The translations under genes and the position numbers were made by a program. A stretch of 64,000 nucleotides of DNA from an uncultured Kiloniellales bacterium (lineage in GTDB: Bacteria; Actinomycetota; Acidimicrobiia; Spongiisociales; UBA5794): positions 7,007 to 71,006 of the forward strand of contig CAXMOP010000021.1 in assembly GCA_964195155.1 (NCBI GenBank), given 5' to 3'. Shown one piece after another: positions 9,317 to 54,860 of the stretch. The first letter of the stretch is position 1. Every line of letters begins with the position of its first letter. The notes under the pieces were generated by a model. The model searched no databases. It saw only the letters and a list, made by a program, of their open reading frames with translations, and was not told where the DNA came from.

Positions 9317-10381
9317 ATGTCTCTCGCTACCGAGATACCGATCCCCAAAGCGTTGGACGACGCGTTCGCCAAGGAATGGTCGTTCCTGGCTGCACCAGGA
9401 ACCTGGTTCTCGGGCGGGGAACGGGTGGAGATCGCCGCCGAGGCACGAAGGGCAATGACCGAATCCCTCTCCGATGACAGGCGTGGAGCTCAGGCAGTCA
9501 GCGGCGAGCCGAGTGCGAGCCGCCCGGAAAGAATGGCCGGCGAGCCGGCCGGCGAGGGCCTCCCTCCAGCCCTGCGTGACGTGGTTGACATGGTCGCGTC
9601 ATCGTCGCCGTTGATCGACGCCGATTGGGTTGCTGGTCTCGATGAACGGAACGTGACTTTGCCCGCCTATGCCGAGATCATCGGCATCGCCTCCCGAATG
9701 TCGGCGGTTGATTTCTTTCACCGTGCGTTGGGCCTTCCCCTCCCGCCGCTGCCGGAACCACAGGCCGGGGAGCCGACCCTTCTTCCGCCGCCGACGGATC
9801 TCATTGTCGGGAAGTCCTTCCTGCCGATGGTGCCACCGGTGAGCATTCCGCAGACCATCTCGCTGGTCCCGCCCGAGACCCAAGCCTGGCAGGCGTTGTC
9901 CGACGCGACCTACATGACCTTCGACGAGATGGGCGATCCCGATCTTTCTCGATCGCTCCACCGCACGCAGATCGAGCTCGTCGCCGCACGAACGTCGCAG
10001 GTCAACGAGTGCTTCTACTGAGTGTTGGCGCATGCATCGATGCTCAGTTGGAGTGCGCAGAACATGGGAATCGCCTGGGATCCGAGGTCGATCACCGATC
10101 CGAGCGTTGATCCGCTGCTGGCGGGCGGGCGCGAGCTCGTTGGCTTTGTCGATGCCGCCCACGGCTCGGAAGACGATGTGCTGGCCTCGGCGCGGGCTGA
10201 GCTGCGCGCTGCGCTCGGTGATGCGGCCACGGTGGAAGCGGCCGCCGTGCTCGGCAACTTCAACCAGATGAACCGCCTCGCCGACGCCACCGGCATGCCG
10301 GTAGGCCCCGGATCAATGCGCCACTCCGAGCAGCTGCGCGCCGCCACCGGGATCAAGCGCTTCCACGCCCATACGCCCTAA
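9317..10381 (+). CDS. carboxymuconolactone decarboxylase/AhpD-like protein with in-frame UGA (candidate selenocysteine) at 10019-10021; alternatively pseudogene
   Basis: Two ORFs (9317-10021, 10022-10381) are in the same frame separated only by TGA; reading through gives ...SQVNECFY-U-VLAHASML = AhpD core motif xNxCxxCxxxH with U at second Cys. Confidence 0.5.
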
Positions 10382-10385
10382 GGAG

Positions 10386-10540
10386 TCTTCAGTCGTCAGT
10401 CCTGAGTCATCAGCCAGAGTCGGACGGGCGATGACTGATGACTCCAAAGTCCACAGTCTTCCGTCCACAGTCTTCAGCCCGAAGGTGCGCTTGTCCTTCC
10501 CGCCCACCCTCTGGCTGACTGATGACTGATGACTGATGAC
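10386..10540. repeat. long-range inverted repeat built of TGACTGA-type heptads (tcatcagccagag ... ctctggctgactgatgactgatgac) with internal direct repeat ccacagtctt x2
   Basis: Arms 10386-10420 and 10510-10540 are reverse complements (13/13 core). Confidence 0.65.
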
Positions 10541-10546
10541 TTTCTC

Positions 10547-10583
10547 TTGACACCTAGGTTGTCTTAGCCTAGATTGTCTAGGT
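10547..10583 (+). promoter_or_regulatory. padR promoter (-35 TTGACA 10547-10552, 17-nt spacer, -10 TAGATT 10570-10575) with overlapping operator-like repeats; leaderless start
   Basis: Sigma70-like hexamers; ATG of padR ~8 nt after -10; direct/inverted TTGTCTAG / ACCTAG...CTAGGT repeats across the spacer. Confidence 0.4.
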
Positions 10584-10922
10584 ATGAGAGGGCAGGCGCT
10601 GAAAGGGCATCTCGACCTACTGCTGTTGGCGGTCCTTGCCGACGGTGCCAGGCACGGGTACGCCGTGATCGACGACCTCAGGGAGCGCAGCGACGACACG
10701 TTCGATCTCCCCGAGGGAACGGTGTATCCCGCGTTGCATCGATTGGAGAAGGGCGGCTATCTGAGCAGCGAATGGTCGGTGGTGCAGGGAAGAAGAAGGC
10801 GCACGTATCGGCTGACGGATCGGGGCCGGGGTGCGCTTGGTGAGCAGCGCCGTGCTTGGGGCGAGTTCTCGGATGCGGTGGCCAGTGTGTTGAAAGGATC
10901 CCCGTGGCCGACTACGTCTTGA
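10584..10922 (+). CDS. PadR family transcriptional regulator
   Basis: HGYAVIDDL...GTVYPALHRLEKGGYL winged-helix PadR signature. Confidence 0.9.
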   Translation: MRGQALKGHLDLLLLAVLADGARHGYAVIDDLRERSDDTFDLPEGTVYPALHRLEKGGYLSSEWSVVQGRRRRTYRLTDRGRGALGEQRRAWGEFSDAVASVLKGSPWPTTS

Positions 10923-34059: not shown

Positions 34060-34872
34060 TTACAGCGGGATCTTCATTCCCTCGGTGCCGCCGGTCACGT
34101 GCGGGAAATGCTCGGCTGCGGCAGCGACGATGACGTCGATGTCGTCGTCGGTGTGGTCCGGGTCGTGGCTGGTGAGCACCAGTTCCGCAACTTCGGCGTT
34201 CTTGGCGGCTTGGACCGCGTGCTCCCAGGTGCTGTGGCCCCAGCCCACGCGGACCGGGTATTCGGCGGGCAGATACTGGGCGTCGTGGATGAGTACGTCG
34301 GCCCCCCTGGCGAATTCGGCGAGTCTCTGATCGGCCTCAGGCTCGCTCTCGTGATCGGTCGCGACCACGATGCTCCGCGTCGGGCCGTCAATCCGAAAAC
34401 CGGTGATCCCCTGGGGATGGTTGAGTGCCACAGAAGTGATCGACACTTGGCCGAATTCGATTGGTTCCGAAAAGTCGCGGAACGAGATGGTTGCAGGCGA
34501 ATCGACGAGCGCCGCTGGGAACCATGGCTGGGTCAAGACGCCAGCCAGGGTGGACCGTACATCGCCGACCGGCGTGTCGTGGCCGTGAAGGGTGAAGTTG
34601 TTTCCCGGCATCCAGACCGGGGAGAAGACGGGGATGCCTTGGATGTGGTCCCAGTGGTAGTGGGTCAGGAGCATGGTGAACTGGTGATCGTGATCCCGGC
34701 TCAGGCTGTGCTCGACATCGCGCAATCCGGTGCCGGCATCGATCAGCACACGGTGCCGAGGGTCTTGTGCGATCTCGAAGCACGTCGTGTTGCCACCGTA
34801 CTTTGCGTACTCGACGCCCGATACGGCCATCGATCCGCGCCCACCGTGGATGATGAATTGAGGTTCGGTCAC
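34060..34872 (-). CDS. MBL-fold metallo-hydrolase
   Basis: HYHWDH metal-binding motif. Confidence 0.8.
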   Translation of the reverse strand: MTEPQFIIHGGRGSMAVSGVEYAKYGGNTTCFEIAQDPRHRVLIDAGTGLRDVEHSLSRDHDHQFTMLLTHYHWDHIQGIPVFSPVWMPGNNFTLHGHDTPVGDVRSTLAGVLTQPWFPAALVDSPATISFRDFSEPIEFGQVSITSVALNHPQGITGFRIDGPTRSIVVATDHESEPEADQRLAEFARGADVLIHDAQYLPAEYPVRVGWGHSTWEHAVQAAKNAEVAELVLTSHDPDHTDDDIDVIVAAAAEHFPHVTGGTEGMKIPL

Positions 34873-34878
34873 TGGCTC

Positions 34879-35301
34879 TTACTCGCTGGTTGACTGGGTC
34901 TCCGTCAGACGGCGAGCAAGCTCGGCCATCACCTGGACGGCGATGTCCGGCTTGGAGTTGAGGAGTGCTCGAAAGTCCCACTTGGTGAGGCCGAGCACCT
35001 CGGTGTCGCTGGTCGCGGTGACGGTCGCGGTGCGAGCGGTGTCGTCGCTGAGGAGCGCAATCTCGCCGAAATAGTCACCGGGGCCGTAGGTGGCGACGAC
35101 GCTGCCGTCTCTGCTCACTTCTGCGGTGCCGGAGCCGAGCACGTAGAAGCCGACAGACCGATGGTCACCTTCCGCGATGATCGTGTCGCCGGTTTCGAAG
35201 GTGAGATCGCGTGCGGTGTCTGCGATTGCATTCAGCTGTTTCTTATTGAGGCCACTGAACAGCGGGGCGACCTTCAGCATCTCGACTTTGTCCATCGTCA
35301 C
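34879..35301 (-). CDS. cyclic nucleotide-binding domain protein
   Basis: cNMP phosphate-binding cassette GDYFGEIALL...RTATVTA. Confidence 0.85.
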   Translation of the reverse strand: MTMDKVEMLKVAPLFSGLNKKQLNAIADTARDLTFETGDTIIAEGDHRSVGFYVLGSGTAEVSRDGSVVATYGPGDYFGEIALLSDDTARTATVTATSDTEVLGLTKWDFRALLNSKPDIAVQVMAELARRLTETQSTSE

Positions 35302-35352
35302 TCCTTCGTTCGCGGGAACAATACCTGATGGCTCCTGCTCATGACTCCCCGC

Positions 35353-36210
35353 TCAGTCGTTGAGGGCGGCGGCAATGGCTGCGTATTTGTCGAGCTTGTC
35401 GATCACGACCTCGCGATCGACCGATGGCAATCCGAACACCACCCTGGTCACACCAAGGTCTCGCATCATCTCGAGTTGCTCGAGATCGCGCGGCGCCTGC
35501 CAGGCCGTCAGCTCCAACGAATTGGGATCGCGGCCGGCGGTTTCCATGGCGGCCCGAACTTCCCCGATCTTGCCGGCCATCTCGTGTCTGACGACGATCG
35601 GCATCCACCCGTCACAGAACTCGGCGATGTCGCGCATCGTCCTCGGGCCGGCGCCACCGCCGAGGATGATCGGCGGGTGCGGCTTCTGCGTTGGCTTCGG
35701 CCATTGCCAGGATGGCGTGATATCGACGTGGTCGCCGTGGTACTCGGCCTCGTCCTTCGTCCACAGCTCGATCATGGCCAGCACCTTCTCGCGCAGGATC
35801 GCCCGCCGGTCGGTGTAGGCGACGTGGTGATTGGCCAGCTCTTCTTTGTTCCACCCATATCCGATCCCGAACAGCACCCGCCCATTCGAGATCACGTCGA
35901 GTGAGGCCACCTGTTTGGCCAGCCACAACGGGTCGTGTTGGGCCACCAGGGTGATGCCCGTGCCCAGTTTGACCGTGTCGGTGACCGCGGCGCAGGCCGC
36001 CAGGGCGATGAGCTGGTCGTGCGTTCTCCAGTACATCTCGGGTAGCTCGGCGGCACCGTCGATGCCTCCCCATGGGGTCTTCCGTGAGATCGGGATGTGG
36101 CTGTGCTCGGGAAACCACAGAGACTCGAAACGGCGCGCCTCGACCTCCCTGGCCAGATCCACCGGCTGGATGGTCTTGTCGGTGGGAAAGATCGAGACGC
36201 CGATGTGCAT
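35353..36210 (-). CDS. LLM-class F420-dependent oxidoreductase
   Basis: MHIGVSIFPTDK...FESLWFPEH; ATG 36210 preferred (TTG 36246 lies in repeat). Confidence 0.8.
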   Translation of the reverse strand: MHIGVSIFPTDKTIQPVDLAREVEARRFESLWFPEHSHIPISRKTPWGGIDGAAELPEMYWRTHDQLIALAACAAVTDTVKLGTGITLVAQHDPLWLAKQVASLDVISNGRVLFGIGYGWNKEELANHHVAYTDRRAILREKVLAMIELWTKDEAEYHGDHVDITPSWQWPKPTQKPHPPIILGGGAGPRTMRDIAEFCDGWMPIVVRHEMAGKIGEVRAAMETAGRDPNSLELTAWQAPRDLEQLEMMRDLGVTRVVFGLPSVDREVVIDKLDKYAAIAAALND

Positions 36211-36300
36211 GCCAGTAGCTAAGTAGCTGAGTAGCCAAGTAGCCAAGTCCTGGTCAACGGCTTTCCTCTTTTCTTCGCTACTTCGCTACTTGGCTACTGC
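36211..36300. repeat. heptad-repeat hairpin (AGTAGCY x5 ... CTACTTSG x4)
   Basis: Inverted arms in divergent promoter region. Confidence 0.75.
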
Positions 36301-45750: not shown

Positions 45751-45800
45751 AGGTCGCTCGGCCTCTTCTCGCTAGCTCGAGTTGTCGGTACGCTGACCCC

Positions 45801-46244
45801 ATGGAGGGATGGGACCCGAAGAGAATCATCGTCGGTGTCGACGGCTCGGAGCAATCGATCAATGCCGCCAGAGTCGCCGCCAGCCTCGCTCGCGCCCGGG
45901 ATGCGACGCTCCTCATCGTCGCGGTCGTGCGACCGCCCGAAGGTTGGTGGGGCATCGTCGGCTCGCCGCCCACCGCGGAGGCGCTTGGCGACGCCCTCTC
46001 CAATGCCCAGCGCGACGTGCTCGACCGCACCCTCGACCAGGTAGATCTGGCGGGAATCGACTACGACACGGCGGAGGAGATCGGTGACCCCTCCCAACAG
46101 CTGATCGAGGCGTGCCAGCGCCTCGAGGCAGATCTGCTCGTGGTCGGCCGCCGTGGGGCCGGCCCGCTGCGGAGGATGGTCGTCGGATCGGTGGCAGGCC
46201 ACGTCGTCAACGAGGCGCCATGTCCGGTACTCATCGTCCCCTGA
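45801..46244 (+). CDS. universal stress protein (UspA family)
   Basis: IIVGVDGS...LLVVGRRG..GSVA..V. Confidence 0.85.
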   Translation: MEGWDPKRIIVGVDGSEQSINAARVAASLARARDATLLIVAVVRPPEGWWGIVGSPPTAEALGDALSNAQRDVLDRTLDQVDLAGIDYDTAEEIGDPSQQLIEACQRLEADLLVVGRRGAGPLRRMVVGSVAGHVVNEAPCPVLIVP

Positions 46245-46268
46245 GGGGCCCGTTATGCTCCACTGCTT

Positions 46269-49200
46269 GTGAATGACGGCGCCTCTCCGGAGCGGACGTC
46301 AGACCCGGTAGCGGCCTCACAGGTCGATGTGGTGGCCGAATTGCCCGGGGCATTCTCTGCATTCACGAAGGCCTATACCGCCCGCGTTCCCGACGACGAG
46401 TTCCCGTTGGTCAGCCCTGACGAGCTTCAGGCCGAGCTCGCCAACGCTTTCCGGTTCCTGGCTGAGCGCGGCGACGAGCCGCACGCGATCCGGGTGTTCA
46501 ACCCACAACACGAGGGCCATGGTTACCACGCTCCCGGCTCGGTCGTCGAGATCGTCACCGACGATCGCCCATTCCTGATCGACTCGATTCTGGCGCTACT
46601 CACCCGGCGCGAGCATGCCGTCGCCCGGAGCTTCCACCCCGTCGTTGGCACACTCCGCGACGACGCCGGCAATCTGCTCGACGTCGTCAGGGGCCGCGAT
46701 GCTGACAATCGCGAATCGTTCCAGCACTACGAGCTCCTAGAGATGCTCGATGAGGCCGCAGCTACCGGGCTGGTAGAAGCGATCGACTGGGTGCTCACCG
46801 GCGTGAAACTGGTCGTCAGCGACTTCGTCCCGATGCAAGAAGCGGTTCGGACCATGATCGGCCTTGCCCGCGATGACGCCGCCTCGTTCCCGGAAGAAGA
46901 CGTCGACGAGACCGTTGCGTTCCTCGAATGGCTGCTCGATGACAACTTCGTCTTCCTCGGCTACCGGCGATACGACATCGTCGACGCTAACGGGCAGCCT
47001 GCGCTGGTCATCACCCCCGGCACCGGACTCGGGTTGCTCCACACTGAATGGCGGAGCAAATATGTCGAGCCGGTACCGCTTGAGGATCTGCCGACCGGCG
47101 TCCGCGAGCGGTACGAGTCGAGCGACCATCTGGTGATCTCGAAGACGAACGCCTACTCGACGGTGCACCGCGACGCTCGGATGGACTACATCGGTTTGCG
47201 ACTCGTCGGCGACGATGCCAGCCCCCAGGGGGAGGCCCGCCTTCTCGGGCTCTTCACGTCGAAGGCGTACATGGCGAATGCGGGGTCGATTCCGATCCTG
47301 CGCAACAAGCTGGAGCGAATCCTGGCGGAAGAGGACCTGATCGAGGGATCCCATGACTACAAGGTGATCGTCCAGATCTTCGACTCCTTCCCGATGGATG
47401 AGTTGTTCACGATCTCGCACGACGATCTGCGCCGCAGCCTGATCGGTCTGCTCGAGTCCGAGGAGCACCAGCGCGTGCGCCTTTTCGTCCGACGCGATGC
47501 GCTGAGCCGCAATGTGTCGGTGCTGGTCGTCGCGCCGAGGGAGCGATTCAACGCCGAGCTCCGGCAGCAGCTCCAGCAACTGTTCCTCGAGCGGTTCGAG
47601 GGCGAGTCAATCGACTACCGGCTGTCGCTTGGTGAGAGCGGCGACGCACGCATCCATTTCACCGTATGGCCGGAAGGTGACATCCCGAATGTGCCGACCG
47701 AGGAACTGGAGAGTGAGGTATATCGCCTCACGCGCACCTGGGAGGATCGGGTGGGTCGTGTGCTCTCCGACCGCGTCGGCCAGGCCGAGGCCAAACGGCT
47801 GGTCGAAGCCCACAATGCTCGATTCCCGACCTACTACCGCTCGTCGACCCCTCTCCCCGAGGCGGCGACCGCGGTGGCCAACATCGATCGGCTCAAGGCC
47901 GGCGACGACGAAATTGCTGTTGATGTGTACAACGAGATCGACAGCGAAGAAGGCCTTACCCGGATCGCCGTGTACAGCAGAGAGGGCAAACGCGACCTCT
48001 CCGCAATGCTGCCACTCCTGGAGGATCTTGGCCTCACCGTCATCGAGGAGGTTCCGACGCGGATCGAAGATGACCAAGAAGAGCTCTTCCTGCACGACTT
48101 TGGTGTGCTGGGCGCGGACGGCGCCGCCCTGGACATCGCCGCGAGTGCGGCACGGGTTGCACAGACCTTGACTGCCGCGCTCACCGGTTCTGCGGAGACC
48201 GACAGCCTGCACCGCCTGGTTGTGGGCAGCGGTCTGAACTATCAGCAGATCAACGTGCTTCGCGCCTATCGGTCGTACTGGCACCTGGTGACGCCGACGT
48301 TCACCAAGGAGTACATCGCCGACACGCTCGCGGCCTATCCCGAGATCACCCAGGACCTCGTGCAGCTCTTCGAGGCCCGCTTCGGACCCGATGGCGACGA
48401 AGGCACAGAAGCCGAGCTGCGGCTGCGCATCATCGACCACCTCGACGATGTCGAGTCGCTCGATGAGGATCGGATTCTGCGCGGTTTCCTCGGGCTGATC
48501 GATGCCACGCTGCGTACGAGCGCCTTCATCGATACCGAGTCGCTTGCCTTCAAGTTCCTCTCAGAAGCGGTCCCGGATATGCCCCAGCCCTTCCCGATGT
48601 TCGAGATCTTCGTCTTTGCCCGCGCCGCCGCCGGCGTGCACCTGCGCGCAGGCAGGGTGGCGCGGGGAGGGATCCGCTGGTCAACCCGGCAAGAGGACTA
48701 CCGCACTGAGGTGCTTGGCCTGATGAAGGCCCAGAAGACCAAGAACGTGGTCATTGTGCCCACCGGCGCCAAGGGTGGCTTCGTTGTGCGGGAGCCCGCC
48801 GACCAGGCCGGCGCTTCCCGGGATGAGATTCACGACGCATACGAGATCTTCATTCGAGGTCTGCTCGACATCACCGACAACCTCGTGGACGGAATCGCGG
48901 TTCACCCTCGCGGCGTGCGCTGCCATGACAGCGGAGACCCATACCTCGTCGTCGCCGCCGATCGAGGAACCGCCACGTTTTCCGATGCCGCCAATGCTAT
49001 CAGCGCCGAGTACGGGTTCTGGCTCGACGACGCCTTCGCCTCCGGTGGCTCGACGGGTTACGACCACAAGGCCCTCGGGATCACCGCCCGCGGGGCCTGG
49101 GAGTCCGTTCGCCGCCACTTCGTCGAGCTCGGCGTCGATATCAATGCCGACGCGGTCACGGTCGTCGGGATCGGCGACATGTCCGGCGATGTCTTTGGGA

Positions 49201-51044
49201 ACGGAATGCTGCTGTCGCGATCGATCCGCCTCATTGCCGCCTTCGACCACCGCCACATCTTCATCGACCCGGAGCCGGATGCGGGGGCCGCGTACGAGCA
49301 GCGGGAGCGGCTCGCGGCGTTGGGTCGTTCCTCTTGGGCCGATTACGACAAGGCGTTGATATCGGTGGGAGGCGGCGTATTTCCGAGGACCGCAAAGCGA
49401 ATCGATATCAGCGAGGAGATGAGCGAGCGATTCGGGATCCGCTCCGGTGTCCTCACGCCAAACGAGCTGATCGGTGCAGTGCTCAAGGCGCCGACCGATC
49501 TTCTCTGGAATGGCGGCCTCGGCACCTTCGTCAAGGCCAGTGGCCAGTCGAATCTCGATGCCCAGGATCGTGCCAACGACGCGATCAGGATCAATGGCAA
49601 CGAGTTGCGAGCCAAAGTGGTGGGTGAGGGGGGCAACCTCGGCTTCACCCAGGCCGGGCGCATCGAGTACTCCCGCTTCGAAGGTCTGATATTCACCGAT
49701 TTCGTCGACAACGTCGGGGGCGTCCACTGCTCGGACAAAGAAGTGAACATCAAAGTGTTGCTTCGCCTTGCGGAGATGGACGGAGCCCTCGAGCGCGAGG
49801 AGCGCAATGCGCTCATCGAATCGGTCTCGAGCGACGTGGTCGAGGCAATCGTCTACGACAACTTCCTGCAGGCGCAGATCCTCGCCCAGGAGGCCGACCT
49901 GTCGGCGGCCAGCATCGATGCGTATGAGGACCTGATGATGGATCTCGAAGAGAATGCGGGTCTCAACCGGGAGATCGAGGGGCTGCCTTCATCCGAGATC
50001 ATGATGGAGCGGTCGCGGGACGGCCTCGCCATGCAACGCCCCGAGCTGGCCGTGATCATGTCGTACGCCAAGCAACAACTCACCAACAACCTGGTGGCCT
50101 CCGACTTGCCGGATTCACCGGAGTTGGACGACGACCTGCGCCGGTACTTTCCGACGAGGATCGTCGACCAGTTCGGCCAGTACATCGATCAGCATCCGCT
50201 GCGTCGCGAGTTGATCTCGACCATCATTGCCAACCAGGTGCTCAACTCGCAGGGATCGACGTTTGTCTCGCGGCTGGAGGCGGAGATGGGGGCGAGCCCT
50301 GCCCAGATCGTGTGGGCGTATCGCGTCGCCAGGGATGTCACCCTCGCCGGACAGCGCTGGTCCGCGATCGAGGAGATCACGGGAATGCTCGATCCCGCCT
50401 TGCAGCGCGACATGCTCCAGGGTGTGGACGATCTGGTCGAGACGGTGGCTCGGGTATTCATCGCCCAGCCACGGGATGCCTCAATGGCCGAGATTATCGA
50501 GCTCTATGGGGGAGGCTTCAACGAGCTCGCCGGCGAGATACAGTCGATCGGCCCCAAGCGCTGGCAGGACCAGAACAATGAGGAGGCGCAGCGCCTGATC
50601 GACCACGGAGTGCCGTCGGAGCTGGCGTACCGCCACGCCTATCAGGATCAGTTGGTGCACGGGACCGACATCGTCGACGTCGCCGAGGCCACCGCCAGAC
50701 CGGTCCTCGACGTAGCCAAGGCGTTTTTCCGCGCCGGCCAGTCCTTCCACATCGACTGGCTTGAGCGCCAGTTGGACAATCTGCCGGCCGACACCCGGTG
50801 GCAGCGATGGGCGCGCCTCAGCCTCGCGTACGACCTCATGGCGCTTCGGAGGCGAATCGTCGAACGCATCTTCGAAGAGTCACCCGATGACACCGCAGAC
50901 CAAGCGATCGACGCCTTCATCTCGAGTCACCTCGAGCAGGAGGGGCGCCTGACCAGACTGATGCGGCTGCTACGCCGCGATGGGGTATCCGATACCGCGG
51001 CGGTGACCGTTGCCATCCGCCAGATCCAGGCCCTGGCCAGCTAA
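46269..51044 (+). CDS. NAD-specific glutamate dehydrogenase, large (~1590 aa) Bac_GDH family
   Basis: Size and blocks GGIRWSTRQEDYRTEVLGLMKAQKTKNVVIVPTGAKGGFV. Confidence 0.9.
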   Translation: MNDGASPERTSDPVAASQVDVVAELPGAFSAFTKAYTARVPDDEFPLVSPDELQAELANAFRFLAERGDEPHAIRVFNPQHEGHGYHAPGSVVEIVTDDRPFLIDSILALLTRREHAVARSFHPVVGTLRDDAGNLLDVVRGRDADNRESFQHYELLEMLDEAAATGLVEAIDWVLTGVKLVVSDFVPMQEAVRTMIGLARDDAASFPEEDVDETVAFLEWLLDDNFVFLGYRRYDIVDANGQPALVITPGTGLGLLHTEWRSKYVEPVPLEDLPTGVRERYESSDHLVISKTNAYSTVHRDARMDYIGLRLVGDDASPQGEARLLGLFTSKAYMANAGSIPILRNKLERILAEEDLIEGSHDYKVIVQIFDSFPMDELFTISHDDLRRSLIGLLESEEHQRVRLFVRRDALSRNVSVLVVAPRERFNAELRQQLQQLFLERFEGESIDYRLSLGESGDARIHFTVWPEGDIPNVPTEELESEVYRLTRTWEDRVGRVLSDRVGQAEAKRLVEAHNARFPTYYRSSTPLPEAATAVANIDRLKAGDDEIAVDVYNEIDSEEGLTRIAVYSREGKRDLSAMLPLLEDLGLTVIEEVPTRIEDDQEELFLHDFGVLGADGAALDIAASAARVAQTLTAALTGSAETDSLHRLVVGSGLNYQQINVLRAYRSYWHLVTPTFTKEYIADTLAAYPEITQDLVQLFEARFGPDGDEGTEAELRLRIIDHLDDVESLDEDRILRGFLGLIDATLRTSAFIDTESLAFKFLSEAVPDMPQPFPMFEIFVFARAAAGVHLRAGRVARGGIRWSTRQEDYRTEVLGLMKAQKTKNVVIVPTGAKGGFVVREPADQAGASRDEIHDAYEIFIRGLLDITDNLVDGIAVHPRGVRCHDSGDPYLVVAADRGTATFSDAANAISAEYGFWLDDAFASGGSTGYDHKALGITARGAWESVRRHFVELGVDINADAVTVVGIGDMSGDVFGNGMLLSRSIRLIAAFDHRHIFIDPEPDAGAAYEQRERLAALGRSSWADYDKALISVGGGVFPRTAKRIDISEEMSERFGIRSGVLTPNELIGAVLKAPTDLLWNGGLGTFVKASGQSNLDAQDRANDAIRINGNELRAKVVGEGGNLGFTQAGRIEYSRFEGLIFTDFVDNVGGVHCSDKEVNIKVLLRLAEMDGALEREERNALIESVSSDVVEAIVYDNFLQAQILAQEADLSAASIDAYEDLMMDLEENAGLNREIEGLPSSEIMMERSRDGLAMQRPELAVIMSYAKQQLTNNLVASDLPDSPELDDDLRRYFPTRIVDQFGQYIDQHPLRRELISTIIANQVLNSQGSTFVSRLEAEMGASPAQIVWAYRVARDVTLAGQRWSAIEEITGMLDPALQRDMLQGVDDLVETVARVFIAQPRDASMAEIIELYGGGFNELAGEIQSIGPKRWQDQNNEEAQRLIDHGVPSELAYRHAYQDQLVHGTDIVDVAEATARPVLDVAKAFFRAGQSFHIDWLERQLDNLPADTRWQRWARLSLAYDLMALRRRIVERIFEESPDDTADQAIDAFISSHLEQEGRLTRLMRLLRRDGVSDTAAVTVAIRQIQALAS

Positions 51045-52450: not shown

Positions 52451-53241
52451 CCATCCAGCCGAGCTCCCAAACGGGGAACACGACGACCACCGCAACGTTG
52501 CTTGGCACCTATCTGCTGCGCCTCGGCGACGACAACCTCATTCTCGCCCAGCGCCTTGGCGAGTACATCTCGCGCGCTCCGGACCTCGAGGAGGACCTCG
52601 CGGTGGCCAACATCGCCCTCGACCACATCGGCGTGGCTCAGCATTTGTACACCTACACCGGCGAGGTCGAGGATGACGGACGCAGCGAGGACGACTTCGC
52701 CTTTCTCCGCTCCGAGCGCGAGTTCACCAATGCACTGCTGGTCGAGCAGCCACATGACGGATTCGGTGACTTGATTACCCGCCAGTTCTTCTTCGACGCA
52801 TACCAGCTCGAGTTGTGGACGGCCCTTGCACAATCCGCCGACGAGCGTCTCGCCGGGATCGCCTCCAAGGCAGTCAAAGAGGCGCGCTATCACCTCAGAC
52901 ACAGCTCGAGCTGGATGATCCGGCTCGGTGACGGCACAGAAGAGTCGCACCAACGCATCCAGCGTTCGGTCAACGATCTGTGGCGGTTCACCGGTGAGCT
53001 CTTCGATGGCGACTCGGTTGACCGCGACCTGTCGAACGCGGGCGTAGGCGTCGACCCGGGAACGTTGCGCCCCGCCTGGGAACGAACGGTCACCGAGGTG
53101 CTGGCCGAAGCGACGCTCGAGCGTCCAGACGATCCGTATCAGGCAAGCGGCGGTAGGCACGGGGTTCACGGCGAGCATCTCGGCCACCTGCTCGCCGAGA
53201 TGCAATGGATGCAGCGGACTTTCCCGGATCTCACCTGGTGA
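52447..53241 (+). CDS. paaC: 1,2-phenylacetyl-CoA epoxidase subunit C
   Basis: Ferritin-like, GTG overlapping paaB stop. Confidence 0.85.
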   Translation: MTIQPSSQTGNTTTTATLLGTYLLRLGDDNLILAQRLGEYISRAPDLEEDLAVANIALDHIGVAQHLYTYTGEVEDDGRSEDDFAFLRSEREFTNALLVEQPHDGFGDLITRQFFFDAYQLELWTALAQSADERLAGIASKAVKEARYHLRHSSSWMIRLGDGTEESHQRIQRSVNDLWRFTGELFDGDSVDRDLSNAGVGVDPGTLRPAWERTVTEVLAEATLERPDDPYQASGGRHGVHGEHLGHLLAEMQWMQRTFPDLTW

Positions 53242-53702
53242 TGGCCAGCGCCATCGACGAGCTGCTCGCTGCGGTCGTCGACCCGGAGATCCCGGTGCTC
53301 ACGATTGCCGACCTCGGCGTCCTGCGAGGGGCTTCGGTCGACGAACACGGCGTGGTCACGGTGACGATCACCCCCACCTATTCGGGGTGCCCGGCAATGG
53401 GCGTCATCGAGGAGGACATCGTGTCGACCCTCGAAGCCGGCGGATACGACCAGATCGTGGTGCGCACGACCTTCAGCCCGGCCTGGACCTCGGACTGGAT
53501 GAGCGAAGAAGCCAAGCGGCGACTGAACGAATACGGCATCGCCCCGCCACAGCAAGTCGGGAGCACACCCGAGCCCGTGTTGTGTCCGCAGTGCGCAGCG
53601 CCGGAAACCAGGCTCGTTGCCGAGTTCGGCTCCACGGCCTGCAAGGCGCTGATGGTGTGCAGCTCGTGCGCCGAGCCCTTCGACCACTTCAAAGCAATAT
53701 GA
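53241..53702 (+). CDS. paaD: phenylacetate-CoA oxygenase subunit PaaD (Fe-S assembly SufT-like)
   Basis: DUF59 N-term + CxxC...CxxC C-term. Confidence 0.8.
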   Translation: MASAIDELLAAVVDPEIPVLTIADLGVLRGASVDEHGVVTVTITPTYSGCPAMGVIEEDIVSTLEAGGYDQIVVRTTFSPAWTSDWMSEEAKRRLNEYGIAPPQQVGSTPEPVLCPQCAAPETRLVAEFGSTACKALMVCSSCAEPFDHFKAI

Positions 53703-53798
53703 GTCGCGAGTCGCGAGTCGCGAGTCGCGAGTTACGAGTCGCGAACGACTCGTCGCTTGTCATGCTCGCGTCTCGCGTCTCGCGACTCGCGACTTCTC
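53703..53798. repeat. heptad-repeat hairpin (GAGTCGC x5 ... GCGACTC-type x4) inserted between paaD and paaE
   Basis: Direct reading; both arms intragenic-operonic. Confidence 0.85.
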
Positions 53799-54860
53799 AT
53801 GGCTGCTGAGTTTCACTCGCTCGCCATCGCCTCCATCGACCGGCTCACCGACGCCTCGGTGACGATCCGCTTTGCCGTGCCACCAGAGCTGGTGGCCGAT
53901 TACCGGTTCACCCCGGGCCAGCACGTGATCGTTCGCGGGGACGTCGATGGTGAAGACGTGCGTCGGAGCTATTCCATCTGCACGAGCGCCAACTCCGGTG
54001 AGCTCCGGGTCGCGGTCAAACAGCTCGACGGCGGAGCCTTCTCGACCTATGTCAACAAGGAGCTGACCGCGGGCGACCGGCTCGAGGTCACGCTTCCGGT
54101 TGGTGAGTTCATCATCGAGACGGATGCTGCCAACGCGAGTCACTATCTGGCGATCGCCGCGGGCAGCGGCATCACCCCGATCATGTCGATGATTGCCACG
54201 GTTCTCGAAGACGAGCCGAACAGCCGCTTCACCCTCGTTTACGGCAACCGCAACTCGATGTCGGTGATGTTCCTCGAGGAGCTCAGTGACCTCAAGGATC
54301 GGTATCCGAGCCGGCTCGTGCTCATCCACGTGCTGAGCCGGGAGTCCAACATCATTCCCCTCTACGACGGTCGCATCGACGGTGCCAAGCTCGATGAGTT
54401 GTTCGCAACGGTCGTCGACGCTCACACCGTCGACGGCTGGTATCTGTGCGGGCCGTCCGGCGTCGTAGAGGCTGCGCGCAAGACCCTGGCCACGCTCGGA
54501 GTGGATGAGGAGTCGATCCACGACGAGCTGTTCTATGCCGGTGATGAGGTGCGCCCCCAAATCCCCGCCGACGACCCGGACGGTTCGACCGTGCGGTTCA
54601 CGCTCAACGGCCGCACCTCGACGATGGTGATCGACCCGGCCGGTCTCAGCATCCTCGACCATGCCCTTGTGGTGCGGCCCGACGCCCCGTTCTCGTGCCA
54701 GAGCGGTGCCTGTGCCTCGTGCCGGGCGGTGGTGACCGCGGGTGAAGTGCGCATGGACCGGAACTGGGCACTCAGCGACGCCGAAGTTGAACGGGGCGAT
54801 GTCCTCACCTGCCAGTCCCATCCCGTCTCCGAGTTCGTCGAGCTGACGTACGACCGATGA
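53799..54860 (+). CDS. paaE: phenylacetate-CoA oxygenase reductase subunit (FNR-like + 2Fe-2S ferredoxin)
   Basis: FAD RxYS, NAD GSGITP, C-terminal CxxxxCxxC...C. Confidence 0.88.
   Translation: MAAEFHSLAIASIDRLTDASVTIRFAVPPELVADYRFTPGQHVIVRGDVDGEDVRRSYSICTSANSGELRVAVKQLDGGAFSTYVNKELTAGDRLEVTLPVGEFIIETDAANASHYLAIAAGSGITPIMSMIATVLEDEPNSRFTLVYGNRNSMSVMFLEELSDLKDRYPSRLVLIHVLSRESNIIPLYDGRIDGAKLDELFATVVDAHTVDGWYLCGPSGVVEAARKTLATLGVDEESIHDELFYAGDEVRPQIPADDPDGSTVRFTLNGRTSTMVIDPAGLSILDHALVVRPDAPFSCQSGACASCRAVVTAGEVRMDRNWALSDAEVERGDVLTCQSHPVSEFVELTYDR

Follow-up and report, generated by a model that had tools for sequence, protein, structure and literature searches.

A 64,000-nucleotide stretch of contig CAXMOP010000021.1 from an uncultured bacterium (hereafter the window; G+C content 64%) carries on its forward strand a gene that conventional reading divides in two. 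The frame opens at an ATG (9317), meets a TGA at 10019-10021, resumes unshifted at the GTG of 10022 and closes with a TAA at 10379-10381. We conclude that 9317-10381 is very probably one selenocysteine (Sec)-decoding gene of the curated family NF041238, and we are equally confident that the in-frame TGA is a genuine Sec codon within a single redox protein of 354 residues. A previous sequence-only reading of this DNA had described two open reading frames (ORFs), 9317-10021 and 10022-10381, that share a frame and are separated by the TGA alone, and had proposed a candidate selenoprotein. The coordinates and the junction, ...VAARTSQVNECFY-[UGA]-VLAHASMLSWS..., were confirmed when the sequence was read again, and the proposal is supported by retention of TGA throughout the family, by the pairing of Sec with cysteine among homologues, by selection downstream of the TGA and by the match to NF041238. 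The features of the locus are as follows:

9317-10381, forward strand: predicted selenoprotein gene, 354 codons plus TAA, assigned from the read-through translation, the NF041238 match and a homologue-like N-terminus
9974-10033, forward strand: active-site segment E220-x11-C232-F-Y234-U235-V-L-A-H239, an AhpD-type proton relay with predicted Sec at the second Cys position
10019-10021, forward strand: probable UGA selenocysteine codon (U235), a TGA that is kept in homologues and a Cys column in full-length homologues
10041-10055, forward strand: predicted bacterial selenocysteine insertion sequence (SECIS) hairpin, from the RNAalifold consensus, pairing compared with controls and synonymous-codon constraint
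10379-10381, forward strand: true stop (TAA) of the predicted selenoprotein gene, from reading of the sequence and an ORF length matching that of the related loci L006 and L007

For the profile searches, C was substituted for U in the query. The 354-residue read-through protein scored 276.7 bits (cutoff 175; E = 3.1e-82) against the NCBIfam equivalog NF041238 ('AhpD_rel_CFYUT, alkylhydroperoxidase-related (seleno)protein'), and the alignment is end to end, with residues 10-350 lying on profile positions 2-356 of 357. Besides exceeding the curated cutoff, the window protein shares with this family its size class of about 350 residues, a CxxU motif whose UGA follows CFY, and a SECIS-like hairpin immediately 3' of that codon. 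It differs in reading C-F-Y-UGA-V where the family signature is C-F-Y-U-T, a substitution of Val for Thr found also in seven of 80 relatives (mostly metagenome-assembled genomes, MAGs, of Acidimicrobiia/Actinomycetota, with one labelled Acidobacteria), and in carrying, around residues 47-80, a low-complexity insert absent from some relatives.

Scores against the broader profiles fell marginally below cutoff for PF02627 (carboxymuconolactone decarboxylase, CMD; 22.8 bits against 23) and for TIGR00778 (26.6 bits against 27.8), and the connection to AhpD and CMD proteins therefore rests on NF041238, on alignments to PDB entries and on the fold. The match to TIGR01926 spans residues 211-330 only and, at 37.6 bits against a cutoff of 81.8, lies so far short that the window protein belongs to a sister family and not to TIGR01926 itself. 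TIGR01926 is one of the profiles representing the marine-metagenome 'AhpD-like' selenoproteins (AhpD-like 1 is COG2128, AhpD-like protein is TIGR01926, AhpD-like 2 and CMD-like are PF02627; PMC2398784, PMC13188914), which likewise carry CxxU in an AhpD/CMD core and are abundant in marine metagenomes, but which are single-domain proteins of about 180 residues. By profile score, then, we assign the window protein to the specific family NF041238 and not to AhpD/CMD proteins in general; of the earlier suggestion that it belonged to a known AhpD-like selenoprotein family, the selenoprotein identity and the AhpD relationship hold, and the family is a different one.

The kind of gene found here is already catalogued. 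Zhang, Fomenko and Gladyshev (2005; PMC1088965) introduced it as 'hypothetical protein 1' in their study of the Sargasso Sea selenoproteome, with four sequences in which CxxU is conserved and a bacterial SECIS was predicted; the family is listed again in PMC13188914, and a curated NCBI model exists. The locus is an ordinary instance of this described family and opens no new question. Its practical value lies in the correction of annotation: in all five assemblies in which we found the gene, gene callers cut it into a 234-residue ORF and a downstream ORF (113 residues where complete), neither with a Pfam hit on record, and these two hypothetical ORFs would be replaced by one 354-residue selenoprotein of a catalogued family.

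Conservation of the in-frame TGA

The five assemblies (three ENA metagenomes, one JGI metagenome and the NCBI MAG GCA_964194755.1) hold the identical gene and TGA, which is therefore not a sequencing or read error. Among 5.8 billion proteins, a word-indexed search found 50 homologues with identities to the window protein ranging from 100% down to 31%, and every one of them is 202-253 residues long, covers 61-66% of the query and ends ...N[E/Q/D]CFY. We also scanned GTDB by pattern, taking one genome from each species: at least 599 stretches matched, and at least 532 of these encode a relative. We kept 80 loci, labelled as Acidimicrobiia/Actinomycetota, Acidobacteria, Myxococcota, Gamma-, Alpha- and Deltaproteobacteria, Binatia, Spirochaetales, Thermodesulfobacteriota, Limisphaerales and Dehalococcoidia. 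The codon after CFY, located by regular expression, is TGA in 86 of 86 copies counted across these loci, the window and the five assemblies, and three further loci with a CFF variant bring the count to 89 of 89; judged from these sequences, such conservation is far beyond chance.

Downstream of the TGA, the homologous loci continue in frame for 107-163 codons beginning [T/V]-x-x-H, the exceptions being one frameshifted copy and those cut by a contig end. The corresponding segment of the window gene has 119 codons, the same number as in its closest genomic relatives, L006 and L007, and comparison with these two gives a dN/dS of 0.21-0.22 downstream of the TGA and 0.16-0.17 upstream. The similarity of the two values indicates that the downstream part is translated. 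At its other end the protein begins MSLATEIPIP, resembling the N-termini of homologues such as MSLDTELPIP.

These data bear on whether the UGA might be a real stop, with a 234-residue N-terminal and a C-terminal polypeptide of about 113-119 residues made separately and then assembling. Gene callers do predict two ORFs in every one of the five assemblies, and in the window a GTG directly follows the TGA and an ATG lies at 10040. However, the codon after the TGA is ACN, which is no start codon, in 73 of 80 homologues; the next AUG is absent from 19 of the 80; and the junction leaves no room for a ribosome-binding site, as the sequence-only reading had also pointed out. The read-through ORFs of these genes end variously in TGA (42), TAG (31) or TAA (9), and a real stop at the internal site should therefore have drifted in the same manner. 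The break would moreover separate the third from the fourth residue of a CxxC-type motif that runs unbroken in Cys-containing homologues and in relatives of known structure. We consider separate synthesis very improbable.

Still less credible, to the point of being negligible, is the alternative raised in the sequence-only reading, that this is a Cys-type AhpD-like gene recently inactivated by a TGC to TGA nonsense change. Full-length homologues of the Cys form do exist and no Sec machinery was found in the window, as such a pseudogene would have it. Against this stand the presence of TGA in all 89 copies, across many phyla and down to 31% protein identity, which refutes the proposal of a local lesion; the 119 intact downstream codons under purifying selection (dN/dS about 0.2); the identical sequence in five assemblies; and a hairpin maintained through the choice of synonymous codons, described below.

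Some individual loci merit separate mention. In a gammaproteobacterial MAG (CM1_200m.P40; L022:10709-10780) a deletion of one nucleotide shortly after the TGA shifts the frame and reduces the downstream ORF to 12 codons, a sign of a pseudogene or else of misassembly. Three genomes carry two paralogous selenoprotein genes 1.2-4.8 kb apart (L025 at 10712 and 15542; L042 at 10724 and 11960; L052 at 10709 and 12018), each copy with its own TGA and hairpin. Within the window, the other in-frame TGA junctions (35353, 46242 and 53700) were considered and rejected as adjacent genes sharing a frame, and a local two-sided scan of third-position G+C (GC3) returned only 10019 and one antisense shadow frame. 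Same-frame neighbours with a single stop between them could pass for read-through candidates, and are ordinary adjacent genes: a luciferase-like monooxygenase, a cNMP-binding protein and a metallo-beta-lactamase-fold protein at 34060-36285 (reverse strand), a universal-stress-like protein and a 1600-residue glutamate dehydrogenase-like ORF at 45753-51044 (forward), and PaaD and PaaE at 53157-54860 (forward).

Active site, fold and likely chemistry

We searched exhaustively with HMMER, using the last 119 residues of the window protein as query. Most matches were short C-terminal fragments, the downstream halves of Sec forms, and a few were full-length proteins of 246-336 residues. At the junction the latter read CFYC (P0054 and P0162), CRFC (P0122), CAYC (P0108) or CAYS (P0083), and a 163-residue fragment (P0163) reads CYYC; the P0162 cluster includes a protein annotated as 'carboxymuconolactone decarboxylase family protein [Acidimicrobiia bacterium]'. 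In the PDB entry 2pfx, the segment NKCFYCLVAH aligns column for column with NECFY[U]VLAH of the window protein. Cysteine in the homologues and the alignment with an AhpD-core structure together place the UGA at the second Cys of a CxxC motif, as the sequence-only reading had proposed; at this column every DNA copy counted has TGA, and rare full-length homologues have Cys.

The surroundings of this position are strongly conserved, Q218, E220, A223, R225, S227, N230 and C232 being invariant across 46 homologues. E220, C232, Y234, U235 and H239 have the exact spacing of the AhpD proton relay, which comprises Glu118, Cys130, His132, Cys133 and His137 in Mycobacterium tuberculosis AhpD and Glu36, Cys48, Tyr50, Cys51 and His55 in PA0269 (PMC3141380). 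In the M. tuberculosis enzyme it is the second cysteine, Cys133, that cross-links with Cys61 of AhpC, Cys130 being partly buried (PMC6626918). By this analogy Sec235 most likely occupies the attacking position of CxxU, and not the resolving position to which the second Cys had previously been assigned.

The fold was approached through an AF2 model of the full-length Cys homologue P0054 (42% identical to the window protein), built from a 46-sequence alignment. The model is all-helical, as the AhpD fold is, and of high confidence (pLDDT 94.0, pTM 0.93), with the CxxC at the start of helix 210-227. By this model, members of the family would be Sestrin-like, two-lobed proteins of AhpD fold. The resemblance to human Sestrin2 (PDB 5cuf) is structural and comes from the predicted model of a homologue; sequence identity is only 10%, and Sestrin2 is eukaryotic and has no Sec. 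AhpD-fold proteins come next among the structural matches (Bmp8, 14.4; 2pfx, 14.2; 2gmy, 13.8; M. tuberculosis AhpD, 12.3), and Foldseek is in agreement for the C-terminal half. On the model, the family appears to be a single-chain, two-lobed AhpD-fold protein that has kept its redox centre in the C-terminal lobe only. The window protein differs from M. tuberculosis AhpD and other AhpD-core/CMD-fold proteins (PF02627, TIGR00778; PDB 1knc/1gu9, 2pfx, 2prr and 6k40; PA0269) in having predicted Sec for the second Cys, in being about twice as long through an extra N-terminal lobe that lacks the motif, in scoring just under the Pfam and TIGR00778 cutoffs and in having no ahpC gene beside it, none having been found adjoining the selenoprotein gene.

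Taken with the established chemistry of AhpD, this arrangement points to an all-helical product whose thiol/selenol centre, E220...C232-F-Y-U235...H239, would lie in the C-terminal lobe. Sec235 would stand where M. tuberculosis AhpD has its attacking Cys133, with C232 as its partner in a selenenylsulfide. The product is most likely a CxxU oxidoreductase that reduces a peroxiredoxin-type partner, a peroxide or another oxidised (small) substrate.

Two observations concern the N-terminal lobe of relatives. A distant subgroup (P0041-P0049) has an extra C-x-[F/L]-C-x-x-R-K motif in this lobe (alignment A4, columns ~68-80), at the place where the window protein has its Cys-free low-complexity insert (residues ~47-80); the motif may represent an additional site, for redox chemistry or for metal, which the clade of the window protein has lost. 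In the 204-residue P0086, the first ~50 residues of the lobe are fused directly to the post-Sec segment (…RRATSHAMMLRAS…), the result of an internal deletion in a family member or of chimeric assembly.

The predicted recoding hairpin and the selenocysteine machinery

We aligned the first 20 codons after the UGA, without gaps, for 80 distinct homologues (alignment A2). RNAalifold returned a single consensus hairpin (columns 29-33 with 39-43), which in the window corresponds to a stem of UGCUC (10041-10045) and GAGUG (10051-10055) enclosing the loop AGUUG (10046-10050); the helix starts 19 nt and the loop 24 nt from the UGA. A 7-bp version of the helix has 83.9% of its cells paired, compared with 24-46% when the 3' partners are slid by one to three columns, and contains 26 double-change cells; none of 500 shuffles attained the observed values. 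Compensation is seen in L078, which has a full U-A in place of C-G, and the sixth (next outer) pair varies among AU (17), CG (14) and GC (5).

The hairpin lies inside the conserved codons M-L-[R/S]-x-S, and for this reason the choice among synonymous codons is more telling. The leucine codon 8 after the UGA is CUC in 79 of 80 homologues (30% of Leu codons in the same genes), and the serine codon 11 is AGC in 74 and AGU in 6, never UCN, against a background of 38% AGY. In the loop, arginine codon 9 is CGU in 48 cases and CGG in 16, and CGC, the codon for 40% of Arg in the background, is not used; where the loop codon encodes serine it is AGU (15 cases) and never AGC. The loop can therefore be written N-G-U/G-N-N, with an essentially invariant G. 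On this comparative evidence, we regard the hairpin at 10041-10055 as conserved and as held by synonymous-codon choice; it is the predicted SECIS, to which SelB would bind. The locus thereby offers a clean and well-controlled example of a minimal bacterial SECIS of this kind.

The sequence-only reading had noticed an inverted repeat in this region, GCGCA (10028-10032) with TGCGC (10054-10058), enclosing CTC (10043-10045) and GAG (10051-10053) around AGTTG (10046-10050). All these elements are present. The inner CUC/GAG and the loop fall within the conserved hairpin; the outer GCGCA/UGCGC helix was rejected as a family feature, having 37.5% of its cells paired in the 80 homologues and competing for 10054-10055, the site of two conserved pairs. 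The conserved element also differs from the SECIS of the Escherichia coli fdhF type, as described by the Bock laboratory and in the bacterial SECIS consensus used in PMC1088965: only a helix of 5-7 bp is supported, without a conserved lower helix or an identified bulged U, and the UGA-to-helix spacing is 19 nt.

By the established bacterial mechanism, SelB carrying Sec-tRNA(Sec) would be recruited by the AGUUG-looped hairpin, 19 nt 3' of the UGA, and Sec would be inserted at 10019-10021 in place of termination. A bolder proposal, which we put forward tentatively and think more likely wrong than right, is that the family is a prokaryotic structural counterpart of the sestrins and that the minimal 5-bp SECIS, common to the many phyla sampled, marks a gene that spreads with its own recoding signal.

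Several results weigh against Sec insertion at this locus or the interpretation built upon it. Two of the five pairs of the window hairpin are G-U wobbles and the helix is short. The single-sequence fold of 10019-10080 (62 nt) is no better than shuffled sequences (z = +0.76), and its minimum-free-energy structure is not the consensus hairpin. Constrained folds compared with shuffled flanks gave no support for a conserved lower helix (mean z = -0.25; 7.7 enclosing pairs against 7.2). Rfam gave chance-level hits only, both for the whole window at gathering thresholds and for 9950-10150 at E <= 10; bacterial SECIS elements have been reported as poorly represented in that database. None of selA, selB, selC and selD lies within the 64-kb window, and no conserved gene neighbour hinting at a partner was seen among 81 loci. 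The structural model, finally, is of a 42%-identical Cys homologue and not of the window protein.

The search for Sec machinery covered several routes. There is no tRNA gene in the window and no tRNA-Sec in the window or in 60 related loci, and SelA, SelB and SelD domains were absent both from the gene calls of the first ~14 kb and from Pfam scans of 30 further window ORFs. A heuristic tblastn search with E. coli SelD had no match in the window or in any of the loci. Within this genome the search covered the 64 kb of the window, and it is from the gene itself that we infer use of Sec by the organism. For context only, each of the 84 complete Actinomarina genomes (Actinomarinales, an order of Acidimicrobiia) is reported to have selA, selC, selD and a divergent selB (bioRxiv 10.64898/2026.04.03.716425).

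This bears on the remaining alternative, that the UGA is decoded otherwise in this organism (by insertion of Cys or Trp, or by low-level read-through) or that the gene is a relic left by recent loss of the Sec machinery. It would agree with the lack of Sec machinery in any part of the window searched and with a hairpin which, having two wobble pairs, is weaker than those of many homologues. On the other side, UGA terminates Pfam-verified window genes, among them Lon, RmuC and PaaA, and there is therefore no global reassignment of the codon. The core of the hairpin and the G-U of its loop are retained, close relatives (with N-termini 61-58% identical) keep the same architecture under selection, and the Actinomarinales report places selA, selB, selC and selD within the class. 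We judge this alternative improbable, if the least so of the three considered, and continue to favour genuine Sec decoding.

A few candidate calls arose from these searches. SelB-like tblastn matches (again with an E. coli query) beside four Acidimicrobiia-type homologues were rejected, being TypA/BipA by NCBIfam. Within the C-terminal half of a selenoprotein homologue (L043:10711-10799), ARAGORN reports a 'tRNA-Trp (cca)' of 89 nt; the call is probably a false positive.

Neighbouring genes and intergenic repeats

The selenoprotein gene is accompanied in the window by two divergent MFS transporters and a PadR regulator (padR, 10584-10922). A few hundred bases past the selenoprotein gene, three Acidimicrobiia-type loci (L009:4663-6486, L011:11205-13136 and L018:11280-13103) have the gene for the GTPase TypA/BipA and after it a threonine/hydroxyaspartate dehydratase-like gene; this pair lies ~7 kb upstream of the selenoprotein homologue in L043, and it is not kept in the window. 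The intergenic region between the selenoprotein gene and padR (10384-10575) holds a 12-nt motif, TGACTGATGACT, three times (at 10432, 10516 and 10530), with inverted copies of it, AGTCATCAG, at 10405-10416, and a promoter-like TTGACA-17-TAGATT stands at 10547-10575. The repeated motif may be a PadR operator array.

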